A DNA stretch of 64,000 nt, from positions 31,305-95,304 of IMG/VR virus record IMGVR_UViG_3300025732_000024; one strand, written 5' to 3'. This DNA comes from a virus. Below are positions 23,180 through 53,116 of the stretch, piece after piece; the first letter of the stretch is position 1; the number at the start of each line of letters is the position of its first letter. The position numbers were made by a program, and so were the translations under genes. Below the pieces are notes generated by a model. The model was not told the DNA's origin. It saw only the letters and a list, made by a program, of their open reading frames with translations, and did no database searches.

Positions 23180-23303
23180 AAAAAAAGAAACCCCTGGTCA
23201 ACGACTGGGGATTTTTTATTTTAAAAATATTTTATTTTACTAGTTGACATTGTAGAGAAATTATTCTATAGTGTTAAACATGAGACAAAAGGAGATAAAG
23301 AGT

Positions 23304-23720: not shown

Positions 23721-23776
23721 GCCGAAACGGGAGCAATCCCGTCCGCACAGGATGACAACCTGCGCGCTGATGAGGC
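23721..23776 (+). ncRNA. Type II hammerhead ribozyme
   Basis: GCC-GAAA-CGGGA(GCAA)UCCCG-UC^-CGCACAGG(AUGACAA)CCUGCGCG-CUGAUGA-GGC; complete core; cleavage predicted after C23743. Confidence 0.9.
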
Positions 23777-23796
23777 AAGTTAACAAAGGAGCAGGT

Positions 23797-24372: not shown

Positions 24373-24428
24373 CCCACCTGATGAGTCCGGCTGGCGACCG
24401 GACGAAACACTCCGATGAGTGTCGTGGG
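24373..24428 (+). ncRNA. Type I hammerhead ribozyme, copy A
   Basis: CCCAC-CUGAUGA-GUCCGG(CUGGCGA)CCGGAC-GAAA-CACUC(CGAU)GAGUG-UC^-GUGGG; cleavage predicted after C24423. Confidence 0.93.
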
Positions 24429-24455
24429 CAGCCGTATAATTACACTGGAGAATTT

Positions 24456-24755
24456 ATGATTTATTCTGTTGGTTTTGATGAACAGGAATTGAGCAAGGTC
24501 AGCCTAGAAGCTAACAAACTCTTGTCCGGACAAGAACTTGTTTATGACAAAAAATTAATAACGTTCACCTCTTTTTCATCCTATGAAGGGGAGGAAGAGT
24601 GTGACAGAGAAGAGACCGACATCCTCTCTGGAGATACGGTGATTGTGTCCTGGTGGACTCCCTTTGCCTACATCGAAAGGATGAGGCAGGACAAAATAAA
24701 AGTCATTGTTCTGGAAACAGAACACGGAGGTATTATCAGGGTAATTTCATCTTAG
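24456..24755 (+). CDS. Acidic hypothetical protein flanked by two hammerheads (start MIYSVG)
   Basis: GGAG RBS; upstream ORF-track extension is ribozyme sequence. Confidence 0.6.
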   Translation: MIYSVGFDEQELSKVSLEANKLLSGQELVYDKKLITFTSFSSYEGEEECDREETDILSGDTVIVSWWTPFAYIERMRQDKIKVIVLETEHGGIIRVISS

Positions 24756-24756
24756 T

Positions 24757-24812
24757 CCCACCTGATGAGTCCGGCTGGCAACCGGACGAAACACTCCGAT
24801 GAGTGTCGTGGG
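24757..24812 (+). ncRNA. Type I hammerhead ribozyme, copy B
   Basis: Near-identical to 24373-24428 (one loop-II change); direct repeat extends to about 24833; cleavage predicted after C24807. Confidence 0.93.
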
Positions 24813-24839
24813 CAGCCGTATAATTACACTGGATAAACT

Positions 24840-24871
24840 GAAAAAACCCGTCAGAAATGACGGGTTTTTTA
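24840..24871. terminator. Intrinsic terminator
   Basis: AAAAAACCCGTCA-GAAA-TGACGGGTTTTTT. Confidence 0.85.
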
Positions 24872-25185
24872 TTGCCCATTCTCCAATAGTTCCGCTAAAG
24901 TCTCCAGAAGCCACACCAAATCCTCTCTAGGCATCCATCCCAGCTTGTTAAATCTGTCCAGAATTTGCCGGAATCGCTCCTGTTTGTCGTCCATGATTGA
25001 ATTGTACCGTTCGTGTGTCCCTACCTCAAACAATTATATATAAATAATTGTAGAGATAAATTTAATCCAATTAGCAAACCAATCGGCATAGTCCATTAAT
25101 TGTGCAATCAATTTTAGGCATAAATAAACCCGCTAAAACTGTATTAATTTTAGCGGGTTTTAGTTATTGGTGCAATTCAAAAAGG

Positions 25186-25701
25186 TCACGCTATTCTCAA
25201 AAAAGTATCTAGCGTTTTTGGCGGCACGGGTAAGTGGGATGAGAACTCCAGATTGTATTTTTTTGCCCATCGCCTCAAGGTTTTAATAGTGGGAGATTTG
25301 CCAATTTGACGACACAACCACGCAGGAACTTCCGAACCTTTGATGCCCTCAATGGCAATTCCGTCGCCCAATGCTTTATCAAGTTCCGTCTTCAATACCG
25401 GACTTGAATTTAACCGCTTAACAATTTGAGGTAAAGTCACCCCTGTGTTGCACCCTACTGGTCTTTTAGTTCCGTTTTCTCTCTTCTGCTCAAAGCGGAT
25501 ATATGCCAGCATCATCAGCCATTGACAATGAGTTTTGCTGATAATCGGCTCTTCTCCTTTCTTTAATTTACGAAAGTCGGGAACTTGACAAATCTGCTTG
25601 TATTTCCGCCAAGTGCGATCGCTTATCGGGTCATTGTAAATATGAGCGCAAGCAGCCCACACCCAGCGTTCCGGATATCCTTGGGGTTCATTATTTTTCA
25701 T
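25186..25701 (-). CDS. Hypothetical DNA-binding protein
   Basis: SDRTWRKY and TIKTLRRW HTH-like motifs. Confidence 0.5.
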   Translation of the reverse strand: MKNNEPQGYPERWVWAACAHIYNDPISDRTWRKYKQICQVPDFRKLKKGEEPIISKTHCQWLMMLAYIRFEQKRENGTKRPVGCNTGVTLPQIVKRLNSSPVLKTELDKALGDGIAIEGIKGSEVPAWLCRQIGKSPTIKTLRRWAKKYNLEFSSHLPVPPKTLDTFLRIA

Positions 25702-26203
25702 TTCTCCACTCCTTCGCATTAATAAAATTAATATTGGCCGCTACTGCCGCTTGTCTGTCCTCTTCCCTATCTCCCACCATCAAATACTCGTGTCCAGGAT
25801 ACAAACTAATCCCAAAATTCAACATTCCTGGATTAGGTTTTCTAAAGTTGCCAAAATCTTCCCAGCGATTTGATAGTAGTGGACTCTGTCCGACTTCCCT
25901 GGCAAATTTAGATAGTCGGTAAAAAGTTTCACCTCCATCGGTGCAGAAGAAAATCATTAACATCTTAGGGATTAAATCAAGGGTGATTTTCTGTTCTGTA
26001 AAACAATCTTCAAGGGACTTAAACCCTGCTTTCACGCCACCTTGATTGGTGACACCAATGATTTTGTAATCGTGATAGCGAGCGATCGCATCTTCAACTC
26101 CAGGAATCATCTCCTGGTCATAGGGGTCATTGATGAACGTCGCCCCTGACTTACTGCGGCGCACCGTTCCGTCCAAATCCAAAAACAATACTTTACTGCT
26201 CAT
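25691..26203 (-). CDS. HAD phosphatase (GmhB/PNK 3'-phosphatase-like)
   Basis: FLDLDGT, TNQGG, RKPNPGM, VGDREED. Confidence 0.9.
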   Translation of the reverse strand: MSSKVLFLDLDGTVRRSKSGATFINDPYDQEMIPGVEDAIARYHDYKIIGVTNQGGVKAGFKSLEDCFTEQKITLDLIPKMLMIFFCTDGGETFYRLSKFAREVGQSPLLSNRWEDFGNFRKPNPGMLNFGISLYPGHEYLMVGDREEDRQAAVAANINFINAKEWRNEK

Positions 26204-26579
26204 TTTGCTTTTCTAGGTTTAGCCGTTTTTTCCTACCGCGATTCTTGTAATGTCCAAATTCCTTTATCTGAATTCGCTCTTCCGTTACTCCAAACTCTAA
26301 CGCTTTCTCCCGCTCATGCGTCCTAACGCTATCCTGTTCTTGTCGCCACAAAGCCGCTACAGCCATTTGCAGTCCGGTTGTGACATCTACTCCGTAGCAG
26401 GCAATGACTCTTAAAAATTTACGCTTAGATTCCGCCGGAACTTTACCCCGGATTTCTCGCATAGCATCGCCTACTACGGGCTTGCCGTCAATCATCCCTC
26501 GGTCAGGATGATTGCTGATATCTTCTTCTAGTTCTTGTTTAGTCTGTGGTTTCCGTCGTTCGGTCATGATATTCATCAA
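26193..26579 (-). CDS. Hypothetical protein (possible RHH)
   Basis: ORF in operon. Confidence 0.5.
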   Translation of the reverse strand: MMNIMTERRKPQTKQELEEDISNHPDRGMIDGKPVVGDAMREIRGKVPAESKRKFLRVIACYGVDVTTGLQMAVAALWRQEQDSVRTHEREKALEFGVTEERIQIKEFGHYKNRGRKKRLNLEKQNEQ

Positions 26580-26705
26580 AGTTATTTTCTACTATTAGCA
26601 CACTATTAGCGGAAAATGATATGCTATAAAAAAATAGTCCCTATTTTGCTGAAACCAAAATAGGGACACACCCCACTAGCCGTTACCTAATGGAGTACCC
26701 CAATC

Positions 26706-26939
26706 ATGGCACAAACCACAACAAGAATCCAAGAAATTGCAGACAAATTAATGAAAGATGGGCGCATATACCCTGGAGAATACGGGTATATATCAAGATG
26801 TATTCAGGCGATTTATTACCAGCTAGAGAAATTTTATAATGGCACTGGTGTTGAACCACCTAGTAGAAAAACTATAGAAAAATGGTTTGAAAGAGATTGT
26901 CCTGATTGGGCGATCGCTATTTTAAATAAAGCAATTTAA
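26706..26939 (+). CDS. Small hypothetical protein
   Basis: GGAG RBS. Confidence 0.55.
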   Translation: MAQTTTRIQEIADKLMKDGRIYPGEYGYISRCIQAIYYQLEKFYNGTGVEPPSRKTIEKWFERDCPDWAIAILNKAI

Positions 26940-27213
26940 AACAGATAACCTACATTTGTCGGTAAACCTATAGCCACCCCACAAGGGTGGTTTTATATTG
27001 GTGACATAACCCAGACATGACCCAGACATCACAAATTTACCACCATGGAAAAAACCAAAACTCGCGCATATTTTGAAGCACTGGTAAAGGACGGCGTTTC
27101 GTCTCAAACAGCAAGACAAGCAGCATCAACCATGAGATGCGATGACTACTTTGAAAAACGGACAGAGCGAGGCTCTAACAAAGTATTAGACGCGTGGGAA
27201 GAAAGTATGTTAA

Positions 27214-27489
27214 ATGCCAAATAGAAAGCAGATTGCCCAAGAAGTCGGTGTAGGAGAAAGACAACTGCAAAGATACATAAAACTAGCATCCCAATATTTA
27301 GATATGTTTGCATCTTTTAGGGATAAAACCACCAATAATCTGATTGGGATGCCAGTTGAAAATGATGAGCAGATTCAAATATTAAAAGCAATAAGGACGC
27401 TAATTTTAAAATACAAAAACACCAAAAACGGAGCGGAAATTATTGCAACAGAGCTACAGAAAATCAACAAAGGAGACAGCAATGTTTAA
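27214..27489 (+). CDS. HTH protein
   Basis: RKQIAQEVGVGERQLQRY. Confidence 0.65.
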   Translation: MPNRKQIAQEVGVGERQLQRYIKLASQYLDMFASFRDKTTNNLIGMPVENDEQIQILKAIRTLILKYKNTKNGAEIIATELQKINKGDSNV

Positions 27490-27733
27490 ATCTAAAATCA
27501 CAGCATCAATCATCATTATCCTTGCCTTAGCAATGCCAGCCATATCCTACGCAGCAGCCAAATACATACCATCAGCACAGGTTCAAGCCAATGGAAAACA
27601 CTGAAATTTTAATTGTAATCAGGCAACATGAACCAGACGGAAGTTACAAAGAATGGACGGCACAACCAGGGTTATCAGCCTTTAGTGCAGCCGCCAAAAA
27701 ACAAATCAAGAAACTATTGGGAGTAGGCAAATT

Positions 27734-29975
27734 ATGACAGTGGCAGATTTAGTTAAAAGCTTCATGAACTCGGAAATGTCAGTAGACAACGTTTGGGAAA
27801 AAACCCAAGCAATATGCGCTATCTATGGCATTGATCCAAACACATTAGATGAAGCAAACGCCCAATTTATAGCAGGTGAAATTGATAAAGAAAATGCCAG
27901 TTTAGCCGTTAGTGGTAATGGCGGCGGACTGACTGTAACTGAAGACAACGGAAAGAAAAAGAAGAAAAATACACCAGTAGCTACCAATAATTCACAGCAA
28001 GCGCAAACCCTAAAACCTGCGGTAATTGGACTAAGAAATGCTATTGAATCCGAAGTAGCGGGCTTGTCTAATGCCTTCGATTCAGAGTTTACCAAGCACG
28101 AGAAAAACGCAGCCCAAAAAATCACACAGAGAGCCAAACAATTTGCTCCCAATGTAGTCAATTACGTAGCCGAAGAACTGGAGGGCTACAAAGCAGATTC
28201 AGAAATCTTTCACGGACAAATTACAGGAATCATCGAAGAGGCTTTTAGCGGTTTCCTCGACGATTAGACCATCTAATTGGATGATTGCAGCCGCAATTAT
28301 TCAGTCAATCGCACTAATAGGAGTTCTCGTTTATGCAGCATCGCAACCTCCCCGACCCGTGGGAGGAGACAACCACCCAAACACCCAAGAACCCCATAGA
28401 ATTTACCGTGAAACCGACTGGTGAATTTACATTTAAAGGGTCACCTAATCCCGATTTAGTCAGGCAATTAATAGTCTCTAGCGACTATCATCAAGACCAA
28501 TACCGTCGCCACAAATCTGAAACAGAGCAACGCATTGATAGTCAAGCACAGATGACTAATTATTTAACAATCGGATTCTTGGGGACATCTATTTTAGTAT
28601 TAGCAGCGTGTCTAATACTGTCAGCAAACAAAGGTCAAAATCAACAAAATCAAGGAAATATTAATTATGATGGACAATTTATTCGGGGGACTAGTTGCAG
28701 GTAAATCCAGTAAATTAACTGGCAGTGGGCAAAATCCAACCGCTATCGGCAACTTAGGAAACTCAATGGCACGGGTAAAAGACAAGATGCAGCTACCCGT
28801 CGAAATATCAGCAGCAAAAGTTATTCAATTAGAACAAGAAATGGGACAAACAGCAGGCGAAATGGAATTAGCAAGTCAGATTTTTTCTGCACAAGAAAAA
28901 CTCCTAAACGATGCAATCACCTTACACGGTAAAAACACTGACTGGGCAGCTATCACCATGAGAGCGGATCAGAAATTGCGAGAAATCGAATCAAAACATC
29001 ATCAGCAAATTGCCACCTATAGCCTAGGCGCAGCCAAAACCCAGGCTTACGTTGACGGATACACGGGAGCATATCAAATGAGTGCGGAGATTTTCCAATG
29101 ATATTCAAACGAAATTCAGAAGCAGACAACGCATTGTTTCTATTCTTTAATAAGGTCGGTTGGGTGGTGCTATTTTATAATGCGTACACCCTATATCCAT
29201 ACTTTTACGACCTTTTAAAAGCAGCAGATTATTGGCAAAGAATCTTTGCTAGTGCTGTATCTGTGGCATTAATTCTAGGGATTGAATCATCTACCATGAC
29301 CGTATTGTCCGACCCTAGAGTTTTAGTGAAAGTCCTAGAAAAACCTAGAGTTGACAAAGAAATTAAACAGATTTTTGATGTCGTCAGCTTCATGGGAATT
29401 GCTAGTTTTTTATTAGTCGCATCCTATACTTTTTGGACTGATTATCAAATCAATTTAAAACAATTAGGCAACCCTAGCATGATGTTTTTAAAAATATTAT
29501 GCGGCGTGTTTGTGATTGGTGCTGAGTTAGCTTTTGGTTGTGCAAACATATTTTTAATAGCCAGCAAGGAGGCTGAATTAAATGATTCCAGACGCTAAAG
29601 GTATTATTACCATCCTATTGATAGCTTTGTTTTTGGGGATGATTTTATATTTGCAATATGACATGAGGAGATGACATGAAAATCAAAATGGAGGACTTAT
29701 TTACCGTCGGTTGCCTATTTTCTGGATATGCCTTTTTCCAGTTAATGGGAATCATCATCAGAGGGTTTCCCGGTAGTCGTACTGGCGCGATCGCTCTTTC
29801 TGTACTAGGAATCCTTCTTATATTCGGTATGGGATTCAGTAACTGGTGTGGGTTGTGGTACAAGCGCGGCGGTGTCCTGAGCAAAAATCAATCCGTTGTT
29901 GGCTTTGCTCCATTTTATGTACTTGGTACATTTGCACTGGTGGCGTTAATTATTGGATTCAATGCGGGAGGCTGA
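27734..29975 (+). CDS. Cluster of coiled-coil and membrane proteins (27734-28267, 28333-28704, 28667-29101, 29098-29598, 29676-29975)
   Basis: Closely spaced co-directional ORFs, several with hydrophobic segments, upstream of the ATPase. Confidence 0.6.
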
Positions 29976-39306: not shown

Positions 39307-39474
39307 TTACCCCATGCCCCAAGCATCCCCAATAAGTTTAAGATATTGCGTTTCTTGTATTATCATCGCTTCGTATTGCGCTATCAGTCGTTCCTTGACT
39401 TGTTCTGGCGTCATATCCCGAACTTGCAATTTAAAAGCCGCAATTTGAAATTGTTGCTCAGTCGTTAGATTCAT
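39307..39474 (-). CDS. nblA: Phycobilisome degradation adaptor NblA (55 aa, absent from ORF track)
   Basis: MNLTTEQQFQIAAFKLQVRDMTPEQVKERLIAQYEAMIIQETQYLKLIGDAWGMG matches NblA LSLEQQF..F..QV..MS.EQ..L..Y..M; ATGA overlap with upstream gene. Confidence 0.92.
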   Translation of the reverse strand: MNLTTEQQFQIAAFKLQVRDMTPEQVKERLIAQYEAMIIQETQYLKLIGDAWGMG

Positions 39475-40028
39475 GGTTTCAGGAATGTATTGAGTATTTT
39501 TAATAATTCTAGGATAGCATCTCCCGACACCTGATCACGGTTAGATAATTGCAATAACTCATATCCCAATAATTCATAGTTAATACCCTGTAAATTAACA
39601 ATCACAGGGTATTTTGATTTTAATATTAATGCTTTATTAAAAGCGTCAAATTTCCAATACAAGGATACATCTACCATAATTAAATTCTGGGTAAAGCTTA
39701 ATATATGGGAATTAAAAACAGACTTCGGTTTTATGCCATGACAACCATAAAATGTATCGTCAGGCTCTTTATCGCATATTTGTTCTAATATATTAACTAA
39801 ATTAGCGCGGGTAGTTTTAACCCGGTGTTTTTGCCCAATCAGTCCATAAATCTCCCGCATCATATCCCCAATATAATTAGGGTCATATCCTAATTTTGTT
39901 GCTATTTCATTATAAGAATGTCCTTGCAAAAGCATTTTTAAACTATCAGACTCTACCGTGTTCAAAGGCTTATTTCTGATATCTTCAGATATTTTATTAA
40001 GGTATTTAATATATTCAATTTGCTTCAT
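39471..40028 (-). CDS. Cyanobacterial HTH-domain protein (start MKQIEY)
   Basis: KPLNTVE...QGHSYNEIATKLGY...YI, as in N-terminal HTH of cyanobacterial NTPases; the ORF-track start lies inside a CRISPR repeat. Confidence 0.65.
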   Translation of the reverse strand: MKQIEYIKYLNKISEDIRNKPLNTVESDSLKMLLQGHSYNEIATKLGYDPNYIGDMMREIYGLIGQKHRVKTTRANLVNILEQICDKEPDDTFYGCHGIKPKSVFNSHILSFTQNLIMVDVSLYWKFDAFNKALILKSKYPVIVNLQGINYELLGYELLQLSNRDQVSGDAILELLKILNTFLKP

Positions 40029-40155
40029 ACTTTCCCAGTCTATTCTAATGTTCTGCAAGGTACTAGCTTTGCTCCATCTCATCCAGGATGATATAAAATT
40101 GTTTCGTTCTTCCCAGGTTTTTTGTGGGTTTGTTTCGTTCTTCCCAAGTTCTCGT

Positions 40156-40624
40156 GTTTCGCTCCACCCCAACTCTTTCGCCCCTTAGCAAGAAAATCGC
40201 TACTATGTGCGACTTCCATTGATTAGTTTCCTCCCACCCCAATCCTTTCGCCCCTTAGCAAGCTAAATAAGCCTTTGCTAATTTAGGAGCTAGTTCCTGT
40301 TTCCTCCCACCCCAATCCTTTCGCCCCTTAGCAAGCGTTAATCAGGTCGGTTTTGGGGTTATTTTCTGTGGAGTTTCCTCCCACCCCAACTCTTTCGCCC
40401 CTTAGCAAGAATAGAATGTTATTATCTACATAGCTTATGTCTGAGTTTCCTCCCACCCCAACTCTTTCGCCCCTTAGCAAGTTTTGAGGTTATCTGTGTC
40501 GTATCAGAGTCAGATGTTTCCTCCCACCCCAACTCTTTCGCCCCTTAGCAAGCTATCAGCATCCAGGTTAATTCTTCTATCCGTTGCGTTTCCTCCCACC
40601 CCAACTCTTTCGCCCCTTAGCAAG
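40156..40624 (-). CRISPR. CRISPR array 1: 7 repeats of 37 bp, 6 spacers of 33-37 nt
   Basis: Repeat CTTGCTAAGGGGCGAAAGAGTTGGGGTGGGAGGAAAC at 40156, 40226, 40299, 40373, 40445, 40516, 40588; most divergent 3' end at the trailer repeat 40156. Confidence 0.98.
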
Positions 40625-40771
40625 TCCGTCTTTTCAAAGCCTTATGCAGCAAGGGTTCTGTGAGCGGTTTTGGCGAACCTCTTAAAAAATCTCATTTCAG
40701 CCGCTTCAATTTCTTGCGATGTGTAGCGAAGGAAGCCTGAAAATATTACAATGCCTTGGTTCTGAGGATTT

Positions 40772-40908
40772 GGCGAAAGCCTTGGGATAGAAAGCCAGCC
40801 ATAGCTCCGGCTGGTCTGTGAGGGTCATCACTTCTCCTCTTACTTTTCAGGACGAATCCCTAGAAGTCATAGGCTAACCAAAGTCAGCCACCCGCCCAAA
40901 CTGCGGTG
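40772..40908 (-). ncRNA. Putative tracrRNA 1; leader at 40625-40771
   Basis: Promoter TTGACA(40942-40937)-N17-TAACAT; anti-repeat CUUUCUAUCCCAAGGCUUUCGCC (40794-40772) pairs with repeat 1; homologous to 46278-46414. Confidence 0.8.
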
Positions 40909-41305
40909 ATTTGATGTTAGCCTACATCCTATTAATTGTCAATCAATATATCTATAGTCTTGTTGATGTTTCCGATAATTGATACAATATTCAAACCAGC
41001 ACCGCAAAGGTGGCACACGCACCACCTAAGAGGTTTTACCACTGGCAATATTTCACCCGTGAGGGCGGGCTACTTTATATGTCTAATGATACCTCAAAAC
41101 TGTTGTTGCAACAATTGATTCAGGATTTACCAGGGGTGAAGGACTTGCTGTTTCACGGTTGGTAGAGGTTTTTGTTAATTATCGAAAAGTCAATAAGACT
41201 ATTGAAGAAATGATATGATTACTGAAACCATCCCACTCAGGAATATTTGCGGTATTCCGGTGGTTTCAATGGTTAGTCCACTCTACTTAATTCCCTTAGT
41301 GAACT

Positions 41306-42067
41306 ATGAACAGTTTAACAAAGATTGACGTAATTAATAAAGATGGTGATTTAGTAGTTGACTCACGGTTAATCGCTGATGAATTAGGGATTGAACATGA
41401 AGTGTTTATGCGTACTGTTAAAAAGTACGAAACCAAGATACAACAACGCTTTGGAATAATCCGTTTTGAAAACGGAAAAATAGACGGGCGTGGTAGACCT
41501 GAAAAATACGCACTTTTAACAGAATCACAGGCTACCACTTTGATGACTTTTTCTCGTAACACGGATCAGGTTGTGGAGTGTAAATTAAACCTTGTGGCAG
41601 CGTTTGAAAAAGCTAAATCTGTAATCAAATCCGTCATTCCCCAGCAATCGGTACGTATTCAAGAATTAGAACTTGAATTAGCACTTGCCAAGGAAATCAA
41701 CGCGAGCAAGCGGCTTGACTCAGATATGCTTACAATGCACGGGAAGGAAACAGTTTTAGCGTTACGTGGAATGTCGGATCAGGTAATCAAATCCGAGGTA
41801 TTGGTAACTGAGATTGTGCAACCGGAAACTGGTAAAACCGTCAAAATTCTCACAGCAGATCAACTCAAGTCAGAAATTAAAAAACGTACAGGGCAAAAGA
41901 TACCCTCGCTTAAATGGGTAGCCGATAAATTACGTGCTGCAAATCGTGATGATTTATTAGTGCCTGTTACCCGTCACAGCACCAATGAATACATCACGTC
42001 CGATTCACTGGATGAAGTTATTGATTTGGTATTCGGAACTGCCAGACAAACATTAATTGGGGAGTAG
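41306..42067 (+). CDS. Rha-family antirepressor
   Basis: VVDSRLIA, LLTESQATTLMTFSRNT, KLNLVAAFEK. Confidence 0.85.
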   Translation: MNSLTKIDVINKDGDLVVDSRLIADELGIEHEVFMRTVKKYETKIQQRFGIIRFENGKIDGRGRPEKYALLTESQATTLMTFSRNTDQVVECKLNLVAAFEKAKSVIKSVIPQQSVRIQELELELALAKEINASKRLDSDMLTMHGKETVLALRGMSDQVIKSEVLVTEIVQPETGKTVKILTADQLKSEIKKRTGQKIPSLKWVADKLRAANRDDLLVPVTRHSTNEYITSDSLDEVIDLVFGTARQTLIGE

Positions 42068-42526
42068 TTAATTTAGTCGGTCGCATCTTTGGGGCGATCG
42101 CAGCTTCGTAATTCAGTAAGAAACACAAGGAGTGATGAAAAATACATGATTTATGACTACGCTGACCTTTATGATTATTCTATGATAAACGTAGGTAGTC
42201 GGGTTAGATCAACGATTCATAAAAACATGGCTGGGATAGTTGCAAAGAAAGAAGTAATAGAAGTATCCGGCATTCCTTCTGCTACCTTTATCACGGTTCA
42301 ATGGGATAACGGTGAAATATCACATCCGTATCCGCACCAGATAGCTATTGAGCTAGTTCTAAATAAATAAACTTGTCAAATTATTATTGTTACAACTTAT
42401 CGAAAAGTCAATGAGACTATTGAAAACATGATATGATTACTGAAACCATCCCACTCAGGAATATTTACGGTATTCCGGTGGTTTCGATGGTTAGCTTTTC
42501 ACCCGGAAAGGACGGGTTACTTTGCT

Positions 42527-43129
42527 ATGAACAGTATATCAGTTTTCGCGCTTAATGGAATCTCTGTAGAGTTAGACAAAGATTTTATCAGTCTCAATAA
42601 ACTATGGGAAATGGCTGGCAATCCAGAGAATCAAGATCCTCGTCAATGGGCAAGATTACCTCAGACAATCAGGCTAATCTCTCAAGTCCTTACGGAGCAA
42701 GGGTTTCAAGATAATAAGGAGAACAGGAAATTTGTTGTGGTTGTCAAAAGAGGCAAGTGCGGTTATACAAAAGCTATTCCTGCTATAGCGGCTGAGTATG
42801 AGTTGTACTTGAAAAAAACTCAGAGGGCATTAACTTTTGGAATCAGAGAAAAAAACATCCAAGCCTACTTAGCTCGAAAACTAAAAGGCAAAATTGAGAT
42901 CAAAACTTTAGCTGGGTTTATTGACATACTGACGCAAACAGAAATTATTGAAGTTAAAAATATTCGTGAGTGGAAGTCTGCTTTGGGGCAAATCTTAGTA
43001 TATGGAGATTACTACCCATCACATCAAAAAAGAATCCATCTGTTTGGCGAAACTGAAGAGTCATTTTTAAACATGGTACGTCAGCACTGCGAAAAAAGAG
43101 GAGTAAAAGTAACATGGCAGAAAATATAG
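42527..43129 (+). CDS. KilA-N-like domain plus PD-(D/E)xK nuclease domain
   Basis: ISLNKLWEMAG..PRQW; IDILT..IIEVK..WKSALGQ. Confidence 0.75.
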   Translation: MNSISVFALNGISVELDKDFISLNKLWEMAGNPENQDPRQWARLPQTIRLISQVLTEQGFQDNKENRKFVVVVKRGKCGYTKAIPAIAAEYELYLKKTQRALTFGIREKNIQAYLARKLKGKIEIKTLAGFIDILTQTEIIEVKNIREWKSALGQILVYGDYYPSHQKRIHLFGETEESFLNMVRQHCEKRGVKVTWQKI

Positions 43130-43416
43130 GATTTTATAAGATTCTCAAAGAACATGGTGTCAGTGCGCCGCATGAATACGCAATATGTACCAATGAGATT
43201 TACAAACCTTTATTCGGTGGTACTGCCAAAGAAGTAAAAGAAAAAAGAGGAATCAAAACACTTAGAAACGGTCTTTCAAGGGTTGAATTAATGGCCATTG
43301 GGCTTGCGGAAGCATTAGCATCTGAAAAGATGGAAAATACCAATGCCAATGGTTTCTTAAAATGTCGAAACATTTGCAGCGACTCCAGTAAACGAGTTAA
43401 CCGAGTTTTTGAATAA
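43114..43416 (+). CDS. Antirepressor C-terminal-like protein
   Basis: YAICTNEIYKPLFG..A..LRNGLSRVEL. Confidence 0.55.
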   Translation: MAENIGFYKILKEHGVSAPHEYAICTNEIYKPLFGGTAKEVKEKRGIKTLRNGLSRVELMAIGLAEALASEKMENTNANGFLKCRNICSDSSKRVNRVFE

Positions 43417-43441
43417 CCATCTCAACTAATCACAAAACACA

Positions 43442-44095
43442 ATGGAATCATACACAGAAGATAGTCCATTTGTTCCTAGTTTTTCTATCAAGAAACTAGC
43501 AAAAACGCTATTGGGAGATCACAATAATCTGCCAGATTCACCTGGTATTTACTTTGCCTTAGACGCTGCTAATCGTGTTTGGTATGTCGGCATATCAACC
43601 ACCAGCCTAAGAAATCGCCATGCTAGTCACGAGAAATTACCAGAGTTCAAAGAACATAAAGTGCAGTACATAGCCTACTTTGTATGGACTGACATAGACG
43701 ATTTAGAAGAATGGGAAATAGGCTATATCCAGAAATTTAATCCCCCATTAAACATAAACCATATCCAAAAAGAATTACCTCAGATTGACTTAGGGTATGG
43801 TGAGGAACACTACATCAGCAGATACAGAGAAATAAAAGAGCAAATAGCTTTGTTAGAACAGGAAATGGAAGAATTAAAGCCAAATCTTGTTACCTTATTA
43901 GAACGTGAAGGTGGGAAAATATCTCATAAACCCCTGGGATTTAGTGGATACCTAACATCACGCAAATCTTACCAATATTCATCAAAAGTAGAAGCTATCA
44001 AAGAGCTACTAAAACAATCTCAGAAACAAGAAGAAGAGGACGGTACTGCTATTGTGAAATCCGTCACAACTTACCCAACATTTAGATTTAGATAG
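43442..44095 (+). CDS. GIY-YIG domain protein
   Basis: PGIY...WYVG...LRNR...E..YI.KFNPPLN. Confidence 0.8.
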   Translation: MESYTEDSPFVPSFSIKKLAKTLLGDHNNLPDSPGIYFALDAANRVWYVGISTTSLRNRHASHEKLPEFKEHKVQYIAYFVWTDIDDLEEWEIGYIQKFNPPLNINHIQKELPQIDLGYGEEHYISRYREIKEQIALLEQEMEELKPNLVTLLEREGGKISHKPLGFSGYLTSRKSYQYSSKVEAIKELLKQSQKQEEEDGTAIVKSVTTYPTFRFR

Positions 44096-44105
44096 TTGAT
44101 TACCC

Positions 44106-44345
44106 ATGAAAAAACAGCAACCCGAAAAAGTATCAATCAGTGAAATAATTCCCTTCCTGCTCACCATAGATACTCGTAACTGGGAGCAATTCAAGGCACT
44201 GGAAAAAAGCTTTGTTGATAAACACGATGCGGAGACGTGGGAATATGTACTTAACTTTCAAATAAAACCAGTGCTAGATAAAGATTCTGACCGATGGTTA
44301 CTAATTCAATGGTGTAAAAATATCATAGTCAATCAAGGTTATTAA
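44106..44345 (+). CDS. Small hypothetical protein
   Basis: ORF directly upstream of the type V gene. Confidence 0.55.
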   Translation: MKKQQPEKVSISEIIPFLLTIDTRNWEQFKALEKSFVDKHDAETWEYVLNFQIKPVLDKDSDRWLLIQWCKNIIVNQGY

Positions 44346-44378
44346 CTAGGGAAAACAAACAAGCAAGCAGTAAACAAC

Positions 44379-46247
44379 ATGAAAACAATCAAAATCAAGG
44401 TAAAGCTAACACCTAGTCAAATAGAATCCTGCGATAAATATTTAGAAGAATTATCCTGGTTGTGGAACTTGGTCCTAGCCAATCAACTGCACAATCACTG
44501 TATTCGCTGGTATGAATGGGCTGCTAAACTTAGTGCCGAATTAGCAAAAACCAACGAGAAGTTAGAGAAATTAAAACCAGAACAACAGCAATTAATTAAA
44601 GATTATTACAACTCCACAACCAAGCCTAAGCTAAGTAAAAAAGACCAAGAATTAGTCAACAAATTCAACATACTCTCTAGATGGAGTCCCTTCGATTTAG
44701 AAGGGATTATTCCCGTCCCTTTGCGTATTGGTAACAGTGCTTATGAAGGACTATCTTGCCAAATTGCCACAGGTGGGAGCTACTGGAAACGAGATGACAA
44801 CACCGTCATTCCCGTTAACACCAAGAAAGGCATAGCATTCATCAAAGGGTCGAAGTTAGTCAAGGGTGACAGACCCTGGCAGCGAATAGAAATAAAGTCC
44901 CATGAGTACAGGAAATTCCCCGGCGGTAAATACGAAGGACGGGAATTAATCACCTTAGAAAAATTCGATAATCTCAACGGATTAAACACACTAAGAGCAT
45001 CTCAAAACCTACCAGATTTAACCGTTTCTTCTCACTACATAGGTGGTCTATTGGGATTCTTCAAAGAATCTTGGAAAGCATTTTTGGATTCAAAAAGGAC
45101 AATCAGCAGGAAGCCTAAATTCAAAAAAGATAACGATAAAATTGCAACCTTGTCTAACAGTCAATGCCCACCAAACCGCATAGATGTTGACAAAAACATC
45201 ATAGCCATAACCGGATTCAGTGCAGTGAAAGTTGATGATAAATCCTGGGTAAAACGACTGAATTTATCCCAGTCCTTACCCCGCACCTATATGTTGACAA
45301 AGCAACAATCAGGCTACTACATAAACATTATAGTTGCTCATCCACTGCAAGAAGAGAAGTCAATATTAGCCAACAAACTACCCAAAGTCAAAAAACAATT
45401 TGGAGAAGACAGTCAAGAGTATGCAGATATTAAGTCAAAACTAAAATTCATTGAACAACAAATCAAGGAATCATCAGTCATTGAAGGCAAGGGATTAAGT
45501 GTAGGCATAGACCCAGGCGTTCAGTCAGTTGTGTCCACAGACCACGGTGCTTTATTTTTGCCAAATTTATCTAGGGAGCGTGTTTCTATCCACATAGAAG
45601 AACTCCAATCAAAACTAGATAATGCTGAATCAATCAATGATAAAAAGTGGAAAGAAGCAGGGAACAAAACACCTAGACCTAGAACCAATACCGAGATTAA
45701 ACTACAAGATAAAATCAGAAGATTGCATGAACGCGGCAGCAATTCATCCAATGCCTTTAATCACAAATTATCCACAAGATTATCGCGCACCTATGAACAT
45801 ATTGCCTGGGAAAACACCCAAATCAAAAACCTACTCAAGCAAGTAGAACCCAAATCACTACCAGAAGGTACCGGCTACGCTCACAATGGTGCATCTGCTA
45901 AACGCGGATTAAATTGGATTATGAGACAAAGATGTTTAGGTGATTTAGAAAAAAAGACAAAGCTAAAAGTTGAAAATCGCGGTGGCAGTTTTCAGCAGCC
46001 ACCAGCTAACTACACATCCCAAACTTGCCACCAATGCGGACAAAAGGGAGAACGATTATCACAGCATGAATTTATCTGTAAAAACTCCGAATGTAGACTG
46101 TTTAACGTCCCACAACAAGCAGATACCAACGCAGCCAGGAATCACAAACAGAACGCCGGATTTGAATTAGGAGAAGTCAAGTACAACGGCGTAAGATTGA
46201 CATACGAAAAACCCCAAAGATTCAAGAAAAAACGCGCTGACAGTTGA
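44379..46247 (+). CDS. TnpB-derived type V (Cas12-like) effector, 622 aa, RuvC triad intact
   Basis: MKTIKIKVKLT start; RKPKFKK; GIDPG (D378); AWEN (E478); YTSQTCHQCG...CKNSEC; ADTNAARN (D582); tracr/leader/array directly downstream. Confidence 0.88.
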   Translation: MKTIKIKVKLTPSQIESCDKYLEELSWLWNLVLANQLHNHCIRWYEWAAKLSAELAKTNEKLEKLKPEQQQLIKDYYNSTTKPKLSKKDQELVNKFNILSRWSPFDLEGIIPVPLRIGNSAYEGLSCQIATGGSYWKRDDNTVIPVNTKKGIAFIKGSKLVKGDRPWQRIEIKSHEYRKFPGGKYEGRELITLEKFDNLNGLNTLRASQNLPDLTVSSHYIGGLLGFFKESWKAFLDSKRTISRKPKFKKDNDKIATLSNSQCPPNRIDVDKNIIAITGFSAVKVDDKSWVKRLNLSQSLPRTYMLTKQQSGYYINIIVAHPLQEEKSILANKLPKVKKQFGEDSQEYADIKSKLKFIEQQIKESSVIEGKGLSVGIDPGVQSVVSTDHGALFLPNLSRERVSIHIEELQSKLDNAESINDKKWKEAGNKTPRPRTNTEIKLQDKIRRLHERGSNSSNAFNHKLSTRLSRTYEHIAWENTQIKNLLKQVEPKSLPEGTGYAHNGASAKRGLNWIMRQRCLGDLEKKTKLKVENRGGSFQQPPANYTSQTCHQCGQKGERLSQHEFICKNSECRLFNVPQQADTNAARNHKQNAGFELGEVKYNGVRLTYEKPQRFKKKRADS

Positions 46248-46277
46248 CAATTAAAACTGCTCATGCTAATATCAAAT

Positions 46278-46414
46278 CACCGCAGTTTGGGCGGGCGGCT
46301 AGTTTAATATTAGCCTATGACTTCTAGGGATTTATCCTGAAAAGTAAGGGGGAAGGTGACAACCCCCATAGACCAGCCGGAACTATGGCTGGCAGCCTTC
46401 AAAATCACTCGCGC
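46278..46414 (+). ncRNA. Putative tracrRNA 2; leader at 46415-46561
   Basis: TTGACA(46244-46249, overlapping the cas stop)-N17-TAATAT; hairpins co-vary with tracrRNA 1; anti-repeat-like CAGCCUUCAAAAUCACUCGC at 46393-46412. Confidence 0.78.
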
Positions 46415-46561
46415 AATGCCCAGAACCAAGAAAATGCAAGGGATTCAGGCAATCCTTTCGATACATAGCAAGTTGCTAAAGCGGCTGAAATGAGATTTTT
46501 CAGAAGACCCGCGCAAATGGCACTCAGAACCCTTGCTAGACAAGACTTTGAAGATGCGGCA

Positions 46562-47088
46562 CTTGCAAGAAGGGCGGAGGGATGAGAGGTGCTGAAACTA
46601 TTCTGATGGGATGAACGAGCTTATAGCCTGCGACTTGCAAGAAGGGCGGAGGGATGAGAGGTGCTGAAACTATTCTGATGGGATGAACGAGCTTATAGCC
46701 TGCGACTTGCAAGAAGGGCGGAGGGATGAGAGGTGCTGAAACAACGTTAGCGGATACATTACCCTCTAAAGGCATACAACCTTGCAAGAAGGGCGGAGGG
46801 ATGAGAGGGGTTGAAACGCGTGTGGCTGACTTTGGTTAGCCTATGACTTCTAGGGACTTGCAAGAAGGGCGGAGGATAGAAAGGACTGAAACCTCCAGAA
46901 ATTTAATAGCATTATCATTGCGGACAGCAGCTTGCAATAGGCAGAGGAAAAAGAAGGACTGAAACTAGCTTAAAGCAGCAATCAATCAACTTTACCAACC
47001 CTTGCAGCAACGCCAGACCAGGAAGGACTGAAACGCGAAACAGCAGCTTAATGATTGCCGCAATAACAAGCACAAAGAAGGCCGAAAC
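46562..47088 (+). CRISPR. CRISPR array 2: 4 near-consensus 37-bp repeats plus 4 progressively degenerate ones
   Basis: CTTGCAAGAAGGGCGGAGGGATGAGAGGTGCTGAAAC at 46562, 46634, 46706, 46781; variants at 46857, 46931, 47001, about 47054; spacers 1 and 2 identical. Confidence 0.96.
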
Positions 47089-47270: not shown

Positions 47271-47456
47271 TTAGACATTTCCATTTTTCTCTTTCCCTGA
47301 TACAGCCAAACCTGCACTACCTGATGCTAAAGCGAGCGAAATGTTGAACGCACCGCTACTTTTAGCATCTGACAAATTAGGAGCAAATAACACGGCTAAG
47401 GCTAACACTGTACTTAGCAGAGCGAATATTCCGGGTAAAACACTTTCGTTATTCAT
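47271..47456 (-). CDS. Small two-TM membrane protein (possible holin)
   Basis: Two hydrophobic segments; overlaps the portal stop. Confidence 0.4.
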   Translation of the reverse strand: MNNESVLPGIFALLSTVLALAVLFAPNLSDAKSSGAFNISLALASGSAGLAVSGKEKNGNV

Positions 47457-49363
47457 AATGTTGGCATCATTAAAGCATTTGAGTAATATTTTACGCATTT
47501 ACAATTAGATTTACACTGACAATTTTCCCCAGGATTAGGCAGTGTACCAATTTGCGCCCATCCCATCCCATTGTATCGAATGCAATCATCGCAATTATGC
47601 ACGGCACTGATGACCCGACGCTCCCACAAATAACCATTTCGTTTGTGACCTTCTAGTCTGCCACGCTCCCGAAAATGATTAGTTTTGTTATAGTACATTT
47701 TTACTCTAGCTAATATCTGCGCTTCTGACAAATCACCTCTTAGAATATCCTGGGAAAATCTTCGTAAGTATTGATACTCAAGGTTTAATTGTCCACTAAT
47801 CAATGAGTAGTCTCGCCAGTCCATCTGCTTTGCACCACCCACGCCTAAAGCATACTGATACACGGCTAAACTTCTCAATAATTCCGCCGTTTGTCGTTCC
47901 CACCTAGCCACATTAATCCGTCCTGACAATAGTGCATCGGTAACTTTTTCACCCATTGCTAAATGGTCTTTAATCGCCTGTTCTGTCAGTCTTGCTACAT
48001 CACTTTCCCTGACAAACTGACCCTTTTTGTAGCCATTAGCATAATGATAACGTTGGCTTTTCTTGTTCCAAGTAAATATCGTTGATTCCTGTTTGTCTGA
48101 CTTAATTAATAAGTCAGATTGCAACTTTTTTTCGCTAACATCCTCACCTTCTACAGGTGCTATTTCCAAAGGTGTAATACCTGCCAAAGCTCGCATTTTA
48201 TTAATAACATCTAGGTCAAACTTACTAAAAGTTCCTGTGTTTACGCAGTTATTAATAATGTTTAAAAGGGTGATTGTGTCGGTGTTGTCTTCAGTCGCAA
48301 TTGGGAAACTACCATAGTCATCAAGCTCGCCAAAGTTGAACTCCAACATAGGGCGGATAGCCTGTTCTATCAACGCTTCCCCGACTATTTCCATTTGCGA
48401 CCTAGTCACCAATCTCAAGATATTTTGATGACCTTCATTAAGATTGCTATCACCGCTGCTCACCGTACCCGTACCCGTGACAGTGCGAGGGACTAACCAG
48501 CACAGCATCATCATTGATTCTAGGTATCCCAAAATATTTGTAAAAAAGCTCCCATCAGTTTCGTGAGCGATCGCCTCAATCTCATCAGCCAAATCAATCA
48601 CAGCGTAGGAATTATTCTTGATATCTTCTAGGTTTCTTGACATCACATAACCCTGGTTAAACAACCGTGGTTCACCAGTGTTTGGGTCTAAATAAGGTTG
48701 TCCAGTTTCAGGATTAATCATGCTCACAGAGTTGTTGGCAGTATCCGTTTTGCCCACCAATAATTTAGTAGCCTGACGTTCGGATGCGATCGCCATACAA
48801 GCATTGATTACCTTAGTCAGTTCCCAATAAGGATAGGCACGACGGCAAATAGCCACACCGTGAGGGTCGCCACCTAATGCTAAATATGGCTGATTAACTA
48901 AATGAATCCCATTTTCATAGGGAATATAAATATCACTAAATCTTAGATAATGAACCCGGCTAATTTGTCCGTTGAACCCCTCAAACCAATAATATCTAGG
49001 GTCTACAGTTCTAATAATATCTAAATATGCTTTCCTTTTCCTAATAACATAACTAACTTCTGAAAACGATTTACCAAAAGGGATAAAGGTCAGTATTTGA
49101 GACACAACATTTAACCAACTACCCTGCATAGCGTTAATAGTTTTCCTAGTAAAATCTTGAATATAAGGATCAGGATTTTGGTAGTGGTCAAGCATTGAGA
49201 CCCCAAGTAATATTCTCAAATCATTAGCCGCGCTGGCCACTGGAGAATCTTTAAGCATCTCTACATAGGTATTAGTTATGTTCTTATCAGATTGTTGTAC
49301 CATCCCAATCCAGGTAGATACCAATGCCTGAACTTTAGGGGAAAGAATATTAGTGTTTAACAT
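47453..49363 (-). CDS. Portal protein (DUF935-like) fused to a head-morphogenesis-like C-domain
   Basis: FGKSFSEV, GDPHGVAICRRAYPYW, IRPMLEFNFG; C-terminal CDDC...LPNPG..CQCKSNCKC. Confidence 0.8.
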   Translation of the reverse strand: MLNTNILSPKVQALVSTWIGMVQQSDKNITNTYVEMLKDSPVASAANDLRILLGVSMLDHYQNPDPYIQDFTRKTINAMQGSWLNVVSQILTFIPFGKSFSEVSYVIRKRKAYLDIIRTVDPRYYWFEGFNGQISRVHYLRFSDIYIPYENGIHLVNQPYLALGGDPHGVAICRRAYPYWELTKVINACMAIASERQATKLLVGKTDTANNSVSMINPETGQPYLDPNTGEPRLFNQGYVMSRNLEDIKNNSYAVIDLADEIEAIAHETDGSFFTNILGYLESMMMLCWLVPRTVTGTGTVSSGDSNLNEGHQNILRLVTRSQMEIVGEALIEQAIRPMLEFNFGELDDYGSFPIATEDNTDTITLLNIINNCVNTGTFSKFDLDVINKMRALAGITPLEIAPVEGEDVSEKKLQSDLLIKSDKQESTIFTWNKKSQRYHYANGYKKGQFVRESDVARLTEQAIKDHLAMGEKVTDALLSGRINVARWERQTAELLRSLAVYQYALGVGGAKQMDWRDYSLISGQLNLEYQYLRRFSQDILRGDLSEAQILARVKMYYNKTNHFRERGRLEGHKRNGYLWERRVISAVHNCDDCIRYNGMGWAQIGTLPNPGENCQCKSNCKCVKYYSNALMMPTL

Positions 49364-50812: not shown

Positions 50813-53116
50813 ATGGCAGAAAACTTATCTGGTTCTGGCGGATTATTTGGAGGTAGACCAAGCAGCCAATCAACGAGACAACAAATTACTGACGCAATAT
50901 CAGGAACAACAAACGACAACGTTAAGCTCGTCTTAGGTATTTGCGAAGGAACTATTGGAGGTATGGTGAACGGTGGCAGAGACCTTTATTTTGATAAAAC
51001 ACCATACATGAACGCTGACGGAACTGTGAATTTTGCTAACGTCACAATGTCAAGCACGACAGGAACAAATTCCACTTCCCAGGCTTTAAGTTTACCAGAC
51101 GGCTCGTTTTCCGATAATCCTGTTAACGTTGCTATTAAGTACAACATTCCCCAAACTAGGACTATATCCAATGCAGACTTAACCGATATTCAAGTTAAGT
51201 TAGGCATACAACTTCAGTACAACGATGCAAATGGTGATGTCAGGCAAGCGACAATAGGCTTCGATATTCTCATAAAAGAAGGCATTAATGGTAATTTTGC
51301 GACTCGATATTCATCGGGAAATTTAATCGCTAGATATTCAGAAGAAGTAACATTTGACTACAGATTTCCTGTTAATAGAAACGAAAGTTATTTTGAAGTT
51401 AGAGTATTAAAAACCGGGCCAGTAGAACCGCCAAGTCCTATACCGCCAAACACAAGCTATGTAACAGCTAATCTCAGATGGGTAAGCTATACAGAAATAA
51501 CAAGCGATCGCATAGCTTACATCAACACCGCTTTACTAAATCTCCAGTTTCCTGCAAAAACATTCCCATCTACCCCAGAAATATGGGCAATGTTACAGTG
51601 TATGATTTGCGAAATTCCTAGTAACGCAACCGTGAACGCCACTGACAATGGAACAGATTATAGCGGTGGCTGGAATGGTACTTTTTATACTCCCAGTAGA
51701 GCCACAGCAGATCCGGCTTGGATAGTATGGAAATTACTGACCGAACCGAGATTTAATCTAAATATTCCTACTCAATACATAGATAAATATGCACTATATC
51801 AGTGTAGTGTGTATAATAATCAGTTTGTTTCAAATGGTGGTGGTGGTTTAGAGCGAAGATTTTTGTTCAATACCGTACTAGGTTCAGGTGGGCAAGAAGT
51901 AGTTCTAGAAATGACTAGAGCCATTTGCTCTACCATGTATGCCAAACCTTATTGGAACGGTTCACAGATTAGCTTCTGGCAAGATAGACCTACAACAGCA
52001 TTGCCAAAAATTCTTACCAACTCTGATGTTGAAGAAGGTAAATTCGTTTATCAAACACCTGAATTAAACACAGTCACAACTATCGCTAAAGTCTCCTATC
52101 AATCAACAGTTGAAGACTGGGAATTAGTGCCAGAAATAATAGAAGATATCCCAGCCATTCAACGCTATGGAGTACAAGTAGAAGAGTATGCTTTATTGGG
52201 CGAAACTCGCAGGGGTGCTGCTATCAGGTCAGGAAGAAGAACTATTTTAGGGTCACAACCTAATAATATTGTCCTTACCTGTAGAGTGAGAACAAGGGCA
52301 ATGTTCTTTTCGCCTGGCGATGTAATTCAAGTTGCTGATAGTGCTAAAAATAGAGTTAGAATTGGTGGTTTAGTTTCAGTAGCAATCACCACTAAAATAA
52401 CAATTGATTCGCCAGTAACATTAACAGCAAGCGCAACTAAAAAGATTTTATTAACATTACCTGATGAAACAGTTGTAGAAAGAACAATTAGTAACGGTGC
52501 AGGAACATTTACAGAAATTAATTTAACCACACCTCTAACAACCTTACCCGCACCTGAATCACCTTGGCAAATAATAGATACTATTAACAGGACTCAACTT
52601 TATCGGATTACAGAAGTCAATCCAGTAGAAGACAATTTAAACCTATTTGACATCACCGCAAAAACCTATAGTGCCGACTACTATACTCAGATTGAATCGG
52701 GCATAAAAATACCTGCAATTGTTCCGGTGGCAAGGCTTCCAATAGTTGCATCACCACCTATAAACGTTTCATCCAAAATGATAAGAATTACCCATGGTGA
52801 CATCACCAGCTATACATTGATAGCTTCATGGCAACGCCCAACAAAAGTTGTTAACGGTGTTACAGTTGAAGAACCATACACCGATAGATACAAAGTAGAA
52901 TTAAGAAGAGGACAAACTTCTGAATGGGGATCTACACAAATTACCACAGAATTATCAGCTAGATGGGAAAACGTAGGTAATGGATTTTTTTATGTGCGAG
53001 TAGCTGCAATTACAACTAACAACAAAGTAAGTACGTACGCTGAAGCTGCATCGTCAGCACAAGTAACGGCCGACGTAAGCAATCAATACTTTACGGTTTT
53101 TACAGGAGAATTTTAA
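50813..53116 (+). CDS. Lambda gpJ-like tail tip protein
   Basis: ICEGTIGG, DPAWIVW, PGDVIQVAD, FN3-like end. Confidence 0.88.
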   Translation: MAENLSGSGGLFGGRPSSQSTRQQITDAISGTTNDNVKLVLGICEGTIGGMVNGGRDLYFDKTPYMNADGTVNFANVTMSSTTGTNSTSQALSLPDGSFSDNPVNVAIKYNIPQTRTISNADLTDIQVKLGIQLQYNDANGDVRQATIGFDILIKEGINGNFATRYSSGNLIARYSEEVTFDYRFPVNRNESYFEVRVLKTGPVEPPSPIPPNTSYVTANLRWVSYTEITSDRIAYINTALLNLQFPAKTFPSTPEIWAMLQCMICEIPSNATVNATDNGTDYSGGWNGTFYTPSRATADPAWIVWKLLTEPRFNLNIPTQYIDKYALYQCSVYNNQFVSNGGGGLERRFLFNTVLGSGGQEVVLEMTRAICSTMYAKPYWNGSQISFWQDRPTTALPKILTNSDVEEGKFVYQTPELNTVTTIAKVSYQSTVEDWELVPEIIEDIPAIQRYGVQVEEYALLGETRRGAAIRSGRRTILGSQPNNIVLTCRVRTRAMFFSPGDVIQVADSAKNRVRIGGLVSVAITTKITIDSPVTLTASATKKILLTLPDETVVERTISNGAGTFTEINLTTPLTTLPAPESPWQIIDTINRTQLYRITEVNPVEDNLNLFDITAKTYSADYYTQIESGIKIPAIVPVARLPIVASPPINVSSKMIRITHGDITSYTLIASWQRPTKVVNGVTVEEPYTDRYKVELRRGQTSEWGSTQITTELSARWENVGNGFFYVRVAAITTNNKVSTYAEAASSAQVTADVSNQYFTVFTGEF

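Follow-up and report, generated by a model that had tools for sequence, protein, structure and literature searches.

CRISPR systems carried by phages include Cas12 hacker, a phage-borne miniature type V nuclease with a trans-activating CRISPR RNA (tracrRNA, here tracr) of ~185 nt, 37-nt repeats and a 5'-GTN protospacer-adjacent motif (PAM), whose nuclease activity is turned on by thioredoxin from the host (Wang et al., bioRxiv 10.1101/2025.01.20.633832). The hosts were left undetermined in that preprint, and its text is without a locus having a second flanking module (10.1101/2025.01.20.633832). Here we analyse the final 64 kb (hereafter the window; 64,000 nt) of the 95,304-bp IMG/VR virus record IMGVR_UViG_3300025732_000024, in which the gene for a nuclease of this kind, cas12p, lies between two complete tracr-leader-array modules, and several spacers match the genome that carries them. 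We put at about two in three the probability that host-assisted adaptation samples the phage's own DNA and that inert self-spacers alone survive. The phage genome under study is labelled G000; L-numbers and other G-numbers denote contigs and genomes of relatives, X-numbers denote sequencing runs, and coordinates are those of the window unless another record is named.

Self-regulating CRISPR guides are exemplified by the long-form Cas9 tracrRNA that represses the cas promoter, by CreTA/CreR and by the Francisella scaRNA; they combine short or partial complementarity with a valid PAM, bind without cutting and are conserved among relatives. Oppositely oriented ('flipped') spacers have been described as a by-product of adaptation (Shmakov et al. 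2014, PMC4027179).

The Cas12p effector and its two modules

The effector gene (44379-46247, plus strand) encodes a 622-aa protein with Pfam matches to Cas12f1-like_TNB and OrfB_IS605. It matches the 'Cas12p' entries 9jfs and 9jg3 of the PDB with E=0, gap-free over residues 1-613 and at ~80% identity (phmmer against 9jfs_A: E=0, 1131 bits). The RuvC triad D378/E478/D582 (DED) is present in G000 and in all ten aligned full-length relatives, and the thioredoxin-pocket residues are identical to those of Cas12 hacker at 13/13 positions (W44, Y45, W47 and L51; W102, F105, L107, I110, I111, V113, L115, C127 and I129). Judged by sequence, the effector is the already described Cas12p ("Cas12 hacker", type V-P). 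Because the TrxA pocket is kept in full and G000 has no thioredoxin gene, the nuclease would depend on cyanobacterial thioredoxin. The residues at the PAM-contact positions are D197, S261, Q262 and N332, i.e. D S Q N where hacker-1 and most relatives have D N Q K; residue 261 is K in L006 and L008.

Two promoter-tracr-leader-array modules flank cas12p in opposite orientation. Module 2, 3' of the gene, comprises in order a promoter (TTGACA-17-TAATAT; 46244-46272, plus), a tracr gene of ~222 nt that ends in a stem and a T-run (tracr2; 46279-46500, plus), a 61-nt leader, and array 2 (46562-47088, plus), in which four good 37-nt repeats are followed by four decaying ones. With the start of tracr2 set by analogy with the tracr numbering of Cas12 hacker-1 (10.1101/2025.01.20.633832), its positions 7-10 read GUUU, which forms the pseudoknot with the AAAC at the 3' end of the repeat. 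Module 1, upstream and on the opposite strand, has the same order: a promoter (TTGACA-17-TAACAT; 40914-40942, minus), tracr1, a paralog of tracr2 of ~224 nt (40684-40907, minus), a leader, and array 1 (40104-40624, minus), made up of seven 37-nt repeats (40156-40624), six spacers and truncated trailer units.

The two tracr genes can be aligned in a shared fold with those of five relatives, which have one tracr each, and among these seven genes 11 of the 31 predicted pairs are preserved via changes on both sides (covariation), while a GTTTGG (GUUUGG) motif is invariant in 7/7. A search of Rfam returned no family for the tracr genes. In computed pairings, the anti-repeat of tracr1 covers nearly the full length of repeat 1 (-34 kcal/mol, z -4.5), the best partner of tracr2 is the repeat-1 variant of array 1 (z -3.9), and repeat 2 pairs modestly with both tracrs (z about -2); the predicted pairing gives no clean split into two cognate pairs. 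In an RNA library (X17), both tracr-array modules and portions of the intervening genes are covered by contigs, with a depth that cannot rank expression and with DNA carry-over possible.

Both arrays show irregularities. After the last full repeat of array 1, at its trailer end (40104-40151, minus), stand two truncated 17-nt repeat units (…GGGAAGAACGAAAC) with very short spacers of 15-19 nt between, and the array 1 transcript would continue into an open reading frame (ORF) at 39471-40172. The first two repeat-spacer units of array 2 (46599-46705) are an exact 72-nt tandem duplication (S1 = S2), and therefore the arrays here change by slippage or recombination too. Within the array 1 leader, a 25-nt stretch (40633-40657; AACCCTTGCTGCATAAGGCTTTGAA) recurs with one mismatch at two unrelated places (L021 and L022) in the Nostocaceae genome G047; we rejected this match as a CRISPR leader, as it appears to belong to a short dispersed repeat.

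L001, an independent 15-kb contig from another sample whose Cas12p is 98% identical to that of G000, repeats this arrangement, with array 1, tracr1, accessory genes, cas12p, tracr2, array 2 and portal in the same order. Nine other relatives with downstream sequence (63-78% identical) have a single tracr and a single array downstream. In L005, the 3' half of a second tracr and a leader (12930-13135), matching an L006-type locus, lie between two arrays with different repeats. Because L005 holds this partial second tracr and second array, tracr-array modules move between Cas12p loci by recombination. A metagenome scan for closer siblings returned a single 2.1-kb contig with the gene alone. In a Cuspidothrix metagenome-assembled genome (MAG; L011), the cas12p homolog (4922-6777) is broken into two overlapping parts (4922-5614 and 5605-6777), through either a frameshift in the gene or a mistake in assembly.

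The decayed trailer units S5-S7 of array 2 are the sole units that G000 and L001 share, and every newer spacer differs; each lineage has thus since gained its own spacers.

Self-matching spacers and their flanks

Spacer 4 of array 2 (A2S4; 46818-46856, plus) matches the tracr1 gene at 38/39 positions, with a mismatch at position 4. Its protospacer (40857-40895, minus; tracr positions 13-51) has the 5' flank TGG, part of the invariant GUUUGG, and because this TGG is unchanged in 7/7 aligned tracr genes, the tracr1 target site probably never had a PAM. As A2S4 has the same sense as tracrRNA1, it cannot pair with or act on that RNA. It differs from every tracr at an invariant base, shows the same mismatch to tracr1 of L001, and is absent from array 2 of L001, the closest relative, which retains both modules and an identical target.

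A1S6, the oldest full spacer of array 1 (40193-40225, minus), matches 5134-5166 (plus) at 33/33. The protospacer has the 5' flank AGA (5131-5133) and the 3' flank CAC, which is GTG on the other strand; it lies within the 145-bp gap from a prohead protease/scaffold gene (3933-5072, minus) to an XRE gene with an HTH_3 domain (5218-5475, plus), and the site is identical in three other phage contigs. A1S6 matches perfectly not only G000 but also its kin (G396 and G397) and contigs from runs X3, X5 and X8. Array 1 of L001 is cut by the contig end, so that the presence of A1S6 there is not readable.

A third self-match was found for A2S3 (46743-46780, plus), which matches G000 20702-20739 (minus) at 37/38 with a mismatch at position 1 and a 5' flank TGG. 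The target is a giant structural ORF of 4694 aa outside the window, a single open frame at G000 14586-28670 (minus). The same position-1 mismatch is seen against G000, G396, G397 and contigs in runs X3, X5 and X8. In both A2S3 and A2S4 the differing base is on the spacer side, with the target conserved. Because A2S3 and A1S6 fit kin exactly as they fit G000, the self-matching spacers of this phage do not discriminate between self and kin; with equal fit, the guides, if active, would hit the carrier as hard as a rival.

L001 carries related spacers. One of its array 2 spacers matches cas12p of G000 at 36/36 and its own copy at 35/36, with the flank TTG; the mismatch to its own copy falls at seed position 6 and reflects a non-synonymous change. 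The array unit with this spacer was seen again in two runs, one of DNA from 2024 and one of an RNA library from 2017. The second such spacer matches the giant ORF with three mismatches and the flank CGC, and the targets of G000 A2S3 and L001 A2S3' are at most ~450 nt apart within that ORF. A comparison of the 20-spacer array of L006 with the relatives' records gave no self-targets, which says little as those records are 45-66% complete.

A first-pass annotation of the window had reported the matches of array 2 spacer 4 to the tracr1 gene and of an array 1 trailer spacer to the region between the head operon and the XRE gene, and both stand, with 0 such self-matches in 100 shuffles of the sequence. 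It had also described a RuvC-intact 622-aa TnpB/Cas12-like gene between two divergent tracr-array modules, which the Pfam and PDB matches, the DED triad, the promoters and the tracr scaffold bear out, and the absence of cas1, cas2, cas4 and cas6 from the window. Six-frame hidden Markov model searches extend the last observation to the whole 95,304-bp genome, where Cas1, Cas2, Cas4 and Cas6 were not found.

We then compared the flanks of self-derived and external protospacers. The external protospacer of A1S2, matched at 34/34 in a Nostocaceae contig, has the flank GTT; that of A1S3 has GTA and that of A2S1 has ATA (contigs of runs X3 and X8), so that T stands at -2 in 3/3. The A2S1 (= S2) protospacer is in a 2024 lake metagenome, run X8. 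The self or kin protospacers have the flanks TGG, TGG, AGA, TTG and CGC, with GTN in 0/5, and the targets of A2S4 and A1S6 both have G at -2. On the 3' side, NAC (= GTN on the opposite strand) is present in three of the five, as CAC, AAC and GAC after A1S6, L001-A2S2 and L001-A2S3 (binomial P=1.3e-3 at an AC frequency of 0.053); A2S3 and A2S4 are without a wrong-side GTN. A wrong-side PAM would be expected if a prespacer had been chosen correctly but inserted backwards, and a spacer of this kind would be unable to license Cas12p. For A2S3 and A2S4 we also considered a 'slipped' PAM (GTG one base off and GTT three bases off), which was rejected as being at chance level (~0.14 each).

Further searches for outside targets were negative. 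Exact IMG/VR scans with the cores of spacers A1S1, A2S1, A1S4, A1S3 and A1S5 gave no matches, BLAST of array 1 against five relatives' records gave no protospacers, and array 2 together with array 1 of L001 gave nothing solid against 389 Nostocaceae genomes, in a search of low sensitivity that scored two candidates per genome. A PHROG scan of the contig with the A1S2 protospacer returned families of unknown function only.

Inert leftovers, conflict or circuit

The 'chain' from A2S4 to tracr1 and from A1S6 to the head/XRE gap is best explained as a coincidence among inert spacers, not as a circuit, and the self-matching spacers are most likely harmless leftovers. We propose that a Cas12p interference locus on a complete 95-kb Nostocaceae phage gained its second tracr-leader-array module by recombination between related loci. 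Because the phage is without Cas1, Cas2, Cas4 and Cas6, yet its arrays turn over, host enzymes would have to insert the new spacers. This machinery would meet mostly phage DNA, the commonest DNA in an infected cell. A self-derived spacer able to license Cas12p would presumably be lethal to its carrier and be purged, so that those which persist would be backwards (with the PAM on the wrong side), from a PAM-less site, or seed-mutated, and hence neutral. The tracr1 spacer and the head/XRE-gap spacer would be two inert survivors of such purging, and the properly oriented, GTN-flanked array 1 spacers (A1S2 and A1S3) would be the working part of the system, aimed at other mobile elements.

Several observations weigh against this explanation. 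5'-GTN is the PAM published for Cas12 hacker and may not be that of this ortholog: N261S and K332N, which are confined to G000 and L001, alter two of the four PAM contacts that were published, and the PAM of this lineage may differ from GTN. The external A2S1 protospacer has ATA and not GTN, and eight protospacers are known in all (three external, five self or kin). Four of the six distinct lineage-specific array 2 spacers derive from the phage's own genome type, which is a high share. Where a match has a single mismatch (three cases), it is at position 1, 4 or 6 of ~37 (P about 0.004 under uniform placement), which hints at selection against seed pairing, i.e. at some activity at TGG or TTG flanks. 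Finally, a protein bound at the A1S6 target would matter, being just downstream of both divergent promoter-like sites.

An alternative that accommodates some of these points, and that we consider unlikely, is interviral conflict, in which siblings take spacers from each other, including from the CRISPR locus (cas12p and tracr1), exclude superinfecting kin and are themselves protected by seed mismatches; N261S and K332N would then have loosened the PAM requirement enough to admit TKG or NTN flanks. The L001 spacer that fits cas12p of G000 in full and its own copy with a seed mismatch is what such conflict would leave, and its unit recurs across runs of different years; the seed-end placement of the single mismatches and the restriction of the altered PAM contacts to the G000/L001 lineage point the same way. 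There is also a precedent in virus-borne mini-arrays, where the carrier locus is mutated against self-targeting and the targets are close to the arrays (PMC6858448). A match to kin combined with a mutated carrier locus is nevertheless found for the L001 cas12p spacer only: the three G000 spacers fit self and kin alike (A2S3 and A2S4 with the same mismatch, A1S6 perfectly to self), and if active they would be suicidal. The absence of GTN flanks and the wrong-side GTN at three of the five sites also speak against conflict, and a divergence of ~2% already predicts about one difference per 36 nt. The first-pass annotation had suggested a fossil of conflict between two related phages whose modules were later joined. 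The shuffling of modules by recombination, as in L005, and the presence of kin-type spacers in siblings agree with this suggestion; for the tracr1 spacer, nothing indicates that it was at any time functional as a weapon. If the PAM of the lineage is relaxed, the data would mean, strikingly, that sibling phages direct CRISPR against the CRISPR genes of one another. We regard as more doubtful still that N261S and K332N relaxed the PAM with sibling phages attacking each other's CRISPR machinery and structural genes, or that A1S6 serves as a thioredoxin-gated, bind-only brake on the head/XRE promoters.

The other proposal of the first-pass annotation was a double-negative switch, in which the A2S4 CRISPR RNA (crRNA) represses tracr1, and tracr1 with the A1S6 crRNA represses the divergent head/XRE promoters; Cas12p would here bind without cutting, for instance when thioredoxin is not bound. 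Each strand does have a promoter-like site (5096-5124, plus; 5210-5182, minus) with the A1S6 target within ~40 nt downstream, and the identity of this target in three other phage contigs would suit a regulatory site. Without TrxA, Cas12 hacker has almost no nuclease activity (10.1101/2025.01.20.633832), and the RNA-library contigs cover both modules. Cas12 enzymes read the PAM before R-loop formation, and neither target has one: the flanks are TGG and AGA, with G at -2, against the T at -2 of all external protospacers. The complementarity is not of the limited kind that gives binding without cleavage, at 33/33 and 38/39 with the mismatch in the seed rather than at the PAM-distal end, and with RuvC intact, a guide matched over all 33 nt would cleave its target rather than repress it. 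Full-length spacers are typical of adaptation, as opposed to the short or partial matches of known regulatory guides. The annotation's expectation that spacer and target be conserved together in relatives also failed for A2S4, which has its mismatch in the seed and is missing from L001 though its target is conserved there. The three contigs that conserve the A1S6 target, which are 9-67% complete, show none of the remaining CRISPR locus, and tracr2 is computed to pair with repeat 1 as well, so that silencing of tracr1 would not cleanly turn array 1 off. The switch is thus very unlikely, and inert leftovers remain our preferred reading of both spacers.

Although a metagenome-assembled virus record whose repeats invite mis-joins could in principle be a chimera of two related loci, or the tracr-like 'spacer' a mis-assembled tracr fragment, this explanation retains almost no credibility, because the same arrangement of parts is found in the independent contig L001 and in run X3 (a different sample and study code, from a 2017 freshwater set), whose contigs cover the stretch without differences, and 16 runs contain at least 63% of the locus's sampled words; the two-module layout is real.

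Genomic setting and comparison with described systems

G000 is a complete genome: it ends in a direct terminal repeat of 127 bp, and CheckV puts its completeness at 100%. The structural gene set in the window is that of a tailed phage and includes, besides the prohead protease/scaffold gene, a large terminase (6823-8373), a Mu-type portal (47453-49363) and a J-like tail protein (50813-53116). The cas12p locus is placed in a variable accessory island adjoining the portal gene, and module 1 lies within this island, bounded by a conserved upstream gene and cas12p. The accessory genes that separate module 1 from cas12p (41306-44345, plus) are those for Rha, a 93-aa ORF, KilA-N, a 100-aa ORF, GIY-YIG and a 79-aa ORF, a set that is shorter in L001 and different in other relatives. 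Another paralog of Rha, with 54% identity, is encoded at G000 5074-5436.

A 98-nt direct repeat (95% identical) is found just upstream of the Rha-like gene (41179-41276) and upstream of the KilA-N gene (42397-42494). By eye it forms a long hairpin, GAAACCA...TGGTTTC, enclosing an inner GGAATA...TATTCC stem; it may be a shared promoter or 5' leader element, and Rfam returned no family for it.

Relatives were found in Anabaena sp. WFMT, in a Cuspidothrix MAG and in a Nostocaceae MAG, and one G000 spacer, A1S2, matches a Nostocaceae contig. The hosts are in all probability filamentous cyanobacteria of the Nostocaceae.

The closest described system is Cas12p/V-P itself. The likeness extends over ~80% identity along 613 gap-free residues, the RuvC triad, the TrxA pocket, the GUUU:AAAC pseudoknot, 37-nt repeats, carriage by a phage and the lack of adaptation genes. 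The present locus differs in its two complete tracr-leader-array modules, with different repeats and in opposite orientation, in N261S and K332N, in having several spacers that match its own phage genome, and in the placement of its relatives in Anabaena, Cuspidothrix and Nostocaceae assemblies. The architecture had been taken as undescribed when the window was first annotated; this no longer applies to the effector, the tracr and the repeat type, which are those of the published Cas12p/V-P, and continues to apply to the two flanking modules, which the text of that paper does not mention (10.1101/2025.01.20.633832).

Virus-borne mini-CRISPR arrays (Medvedeva et al. 2019, PMC6858448) likewise have no adaptation genes, carry spacers from close kin and have targets near the array, and the L001 cas12p spacer follows their pattern of being perfect to kin and mutated in self. 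The locus described here differs from them in that three spacers of the window fit self as they fit kin, without a PAM, and in having its own effector and tracrRNAs. With flipped spacers (PMC4027179), it shares a canonical PAM on the wrong side, seen in 3/5 self or kin protospacers, and such spacers cannot direct interference; those spacers were observed in the type I-E system of E. coli in the laboratory, whereas the orientation here is deduced from few natural spacers and presumed host enzymes.

Among phages of similar hosts, cyanophage vB_AphaS-CL131 with its type V-U2 locus (PMC6293099) and the Cylindrospermopsis phages RM-2018a and Cr-LKS4 are likewise Nostocales siphophages of ~100 kb that have a TnpB-like effector beside a CRISPR array. 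The CL131 protein has 29% identity across 60% of the length, and its locus was reported without a tracrRNA. The two Cylindrospermopsis phages carry a full-length Cas12p homolog, 44% identical and annotated 'transposase' (MH636380.1 53743-55674; OQ625504.1 54688-56619), and each of the two records has elsewhere a 47-nt stretch 87% identical to the tracr core. None of these three phage records was described with two modules or with self-matching spacers.

Like self-regulating guides, the locus has a guide that matches a promoter-proximal site in the same genome; unlike them, its matches are full-length, PAM-less and non-conserved. Taken together, the analysis provides a complete genome for a two-module Cas12p phage, places the family in bloom-forming Nostocaceae, and shows that tracr-array modules are swapped between loci. 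It may also illustrate from nature how a phage dependent on borrowed host enzymes for adaptation deals with the sampling of its own DNA, the remaining self-spacers being those that cannot fire. Relative to the systems described so far, the new parts are the two-module layout, the likely Nostocaceae hosts for Cas12p, and the signature of a wrong-side PAM among self-derived spacers.

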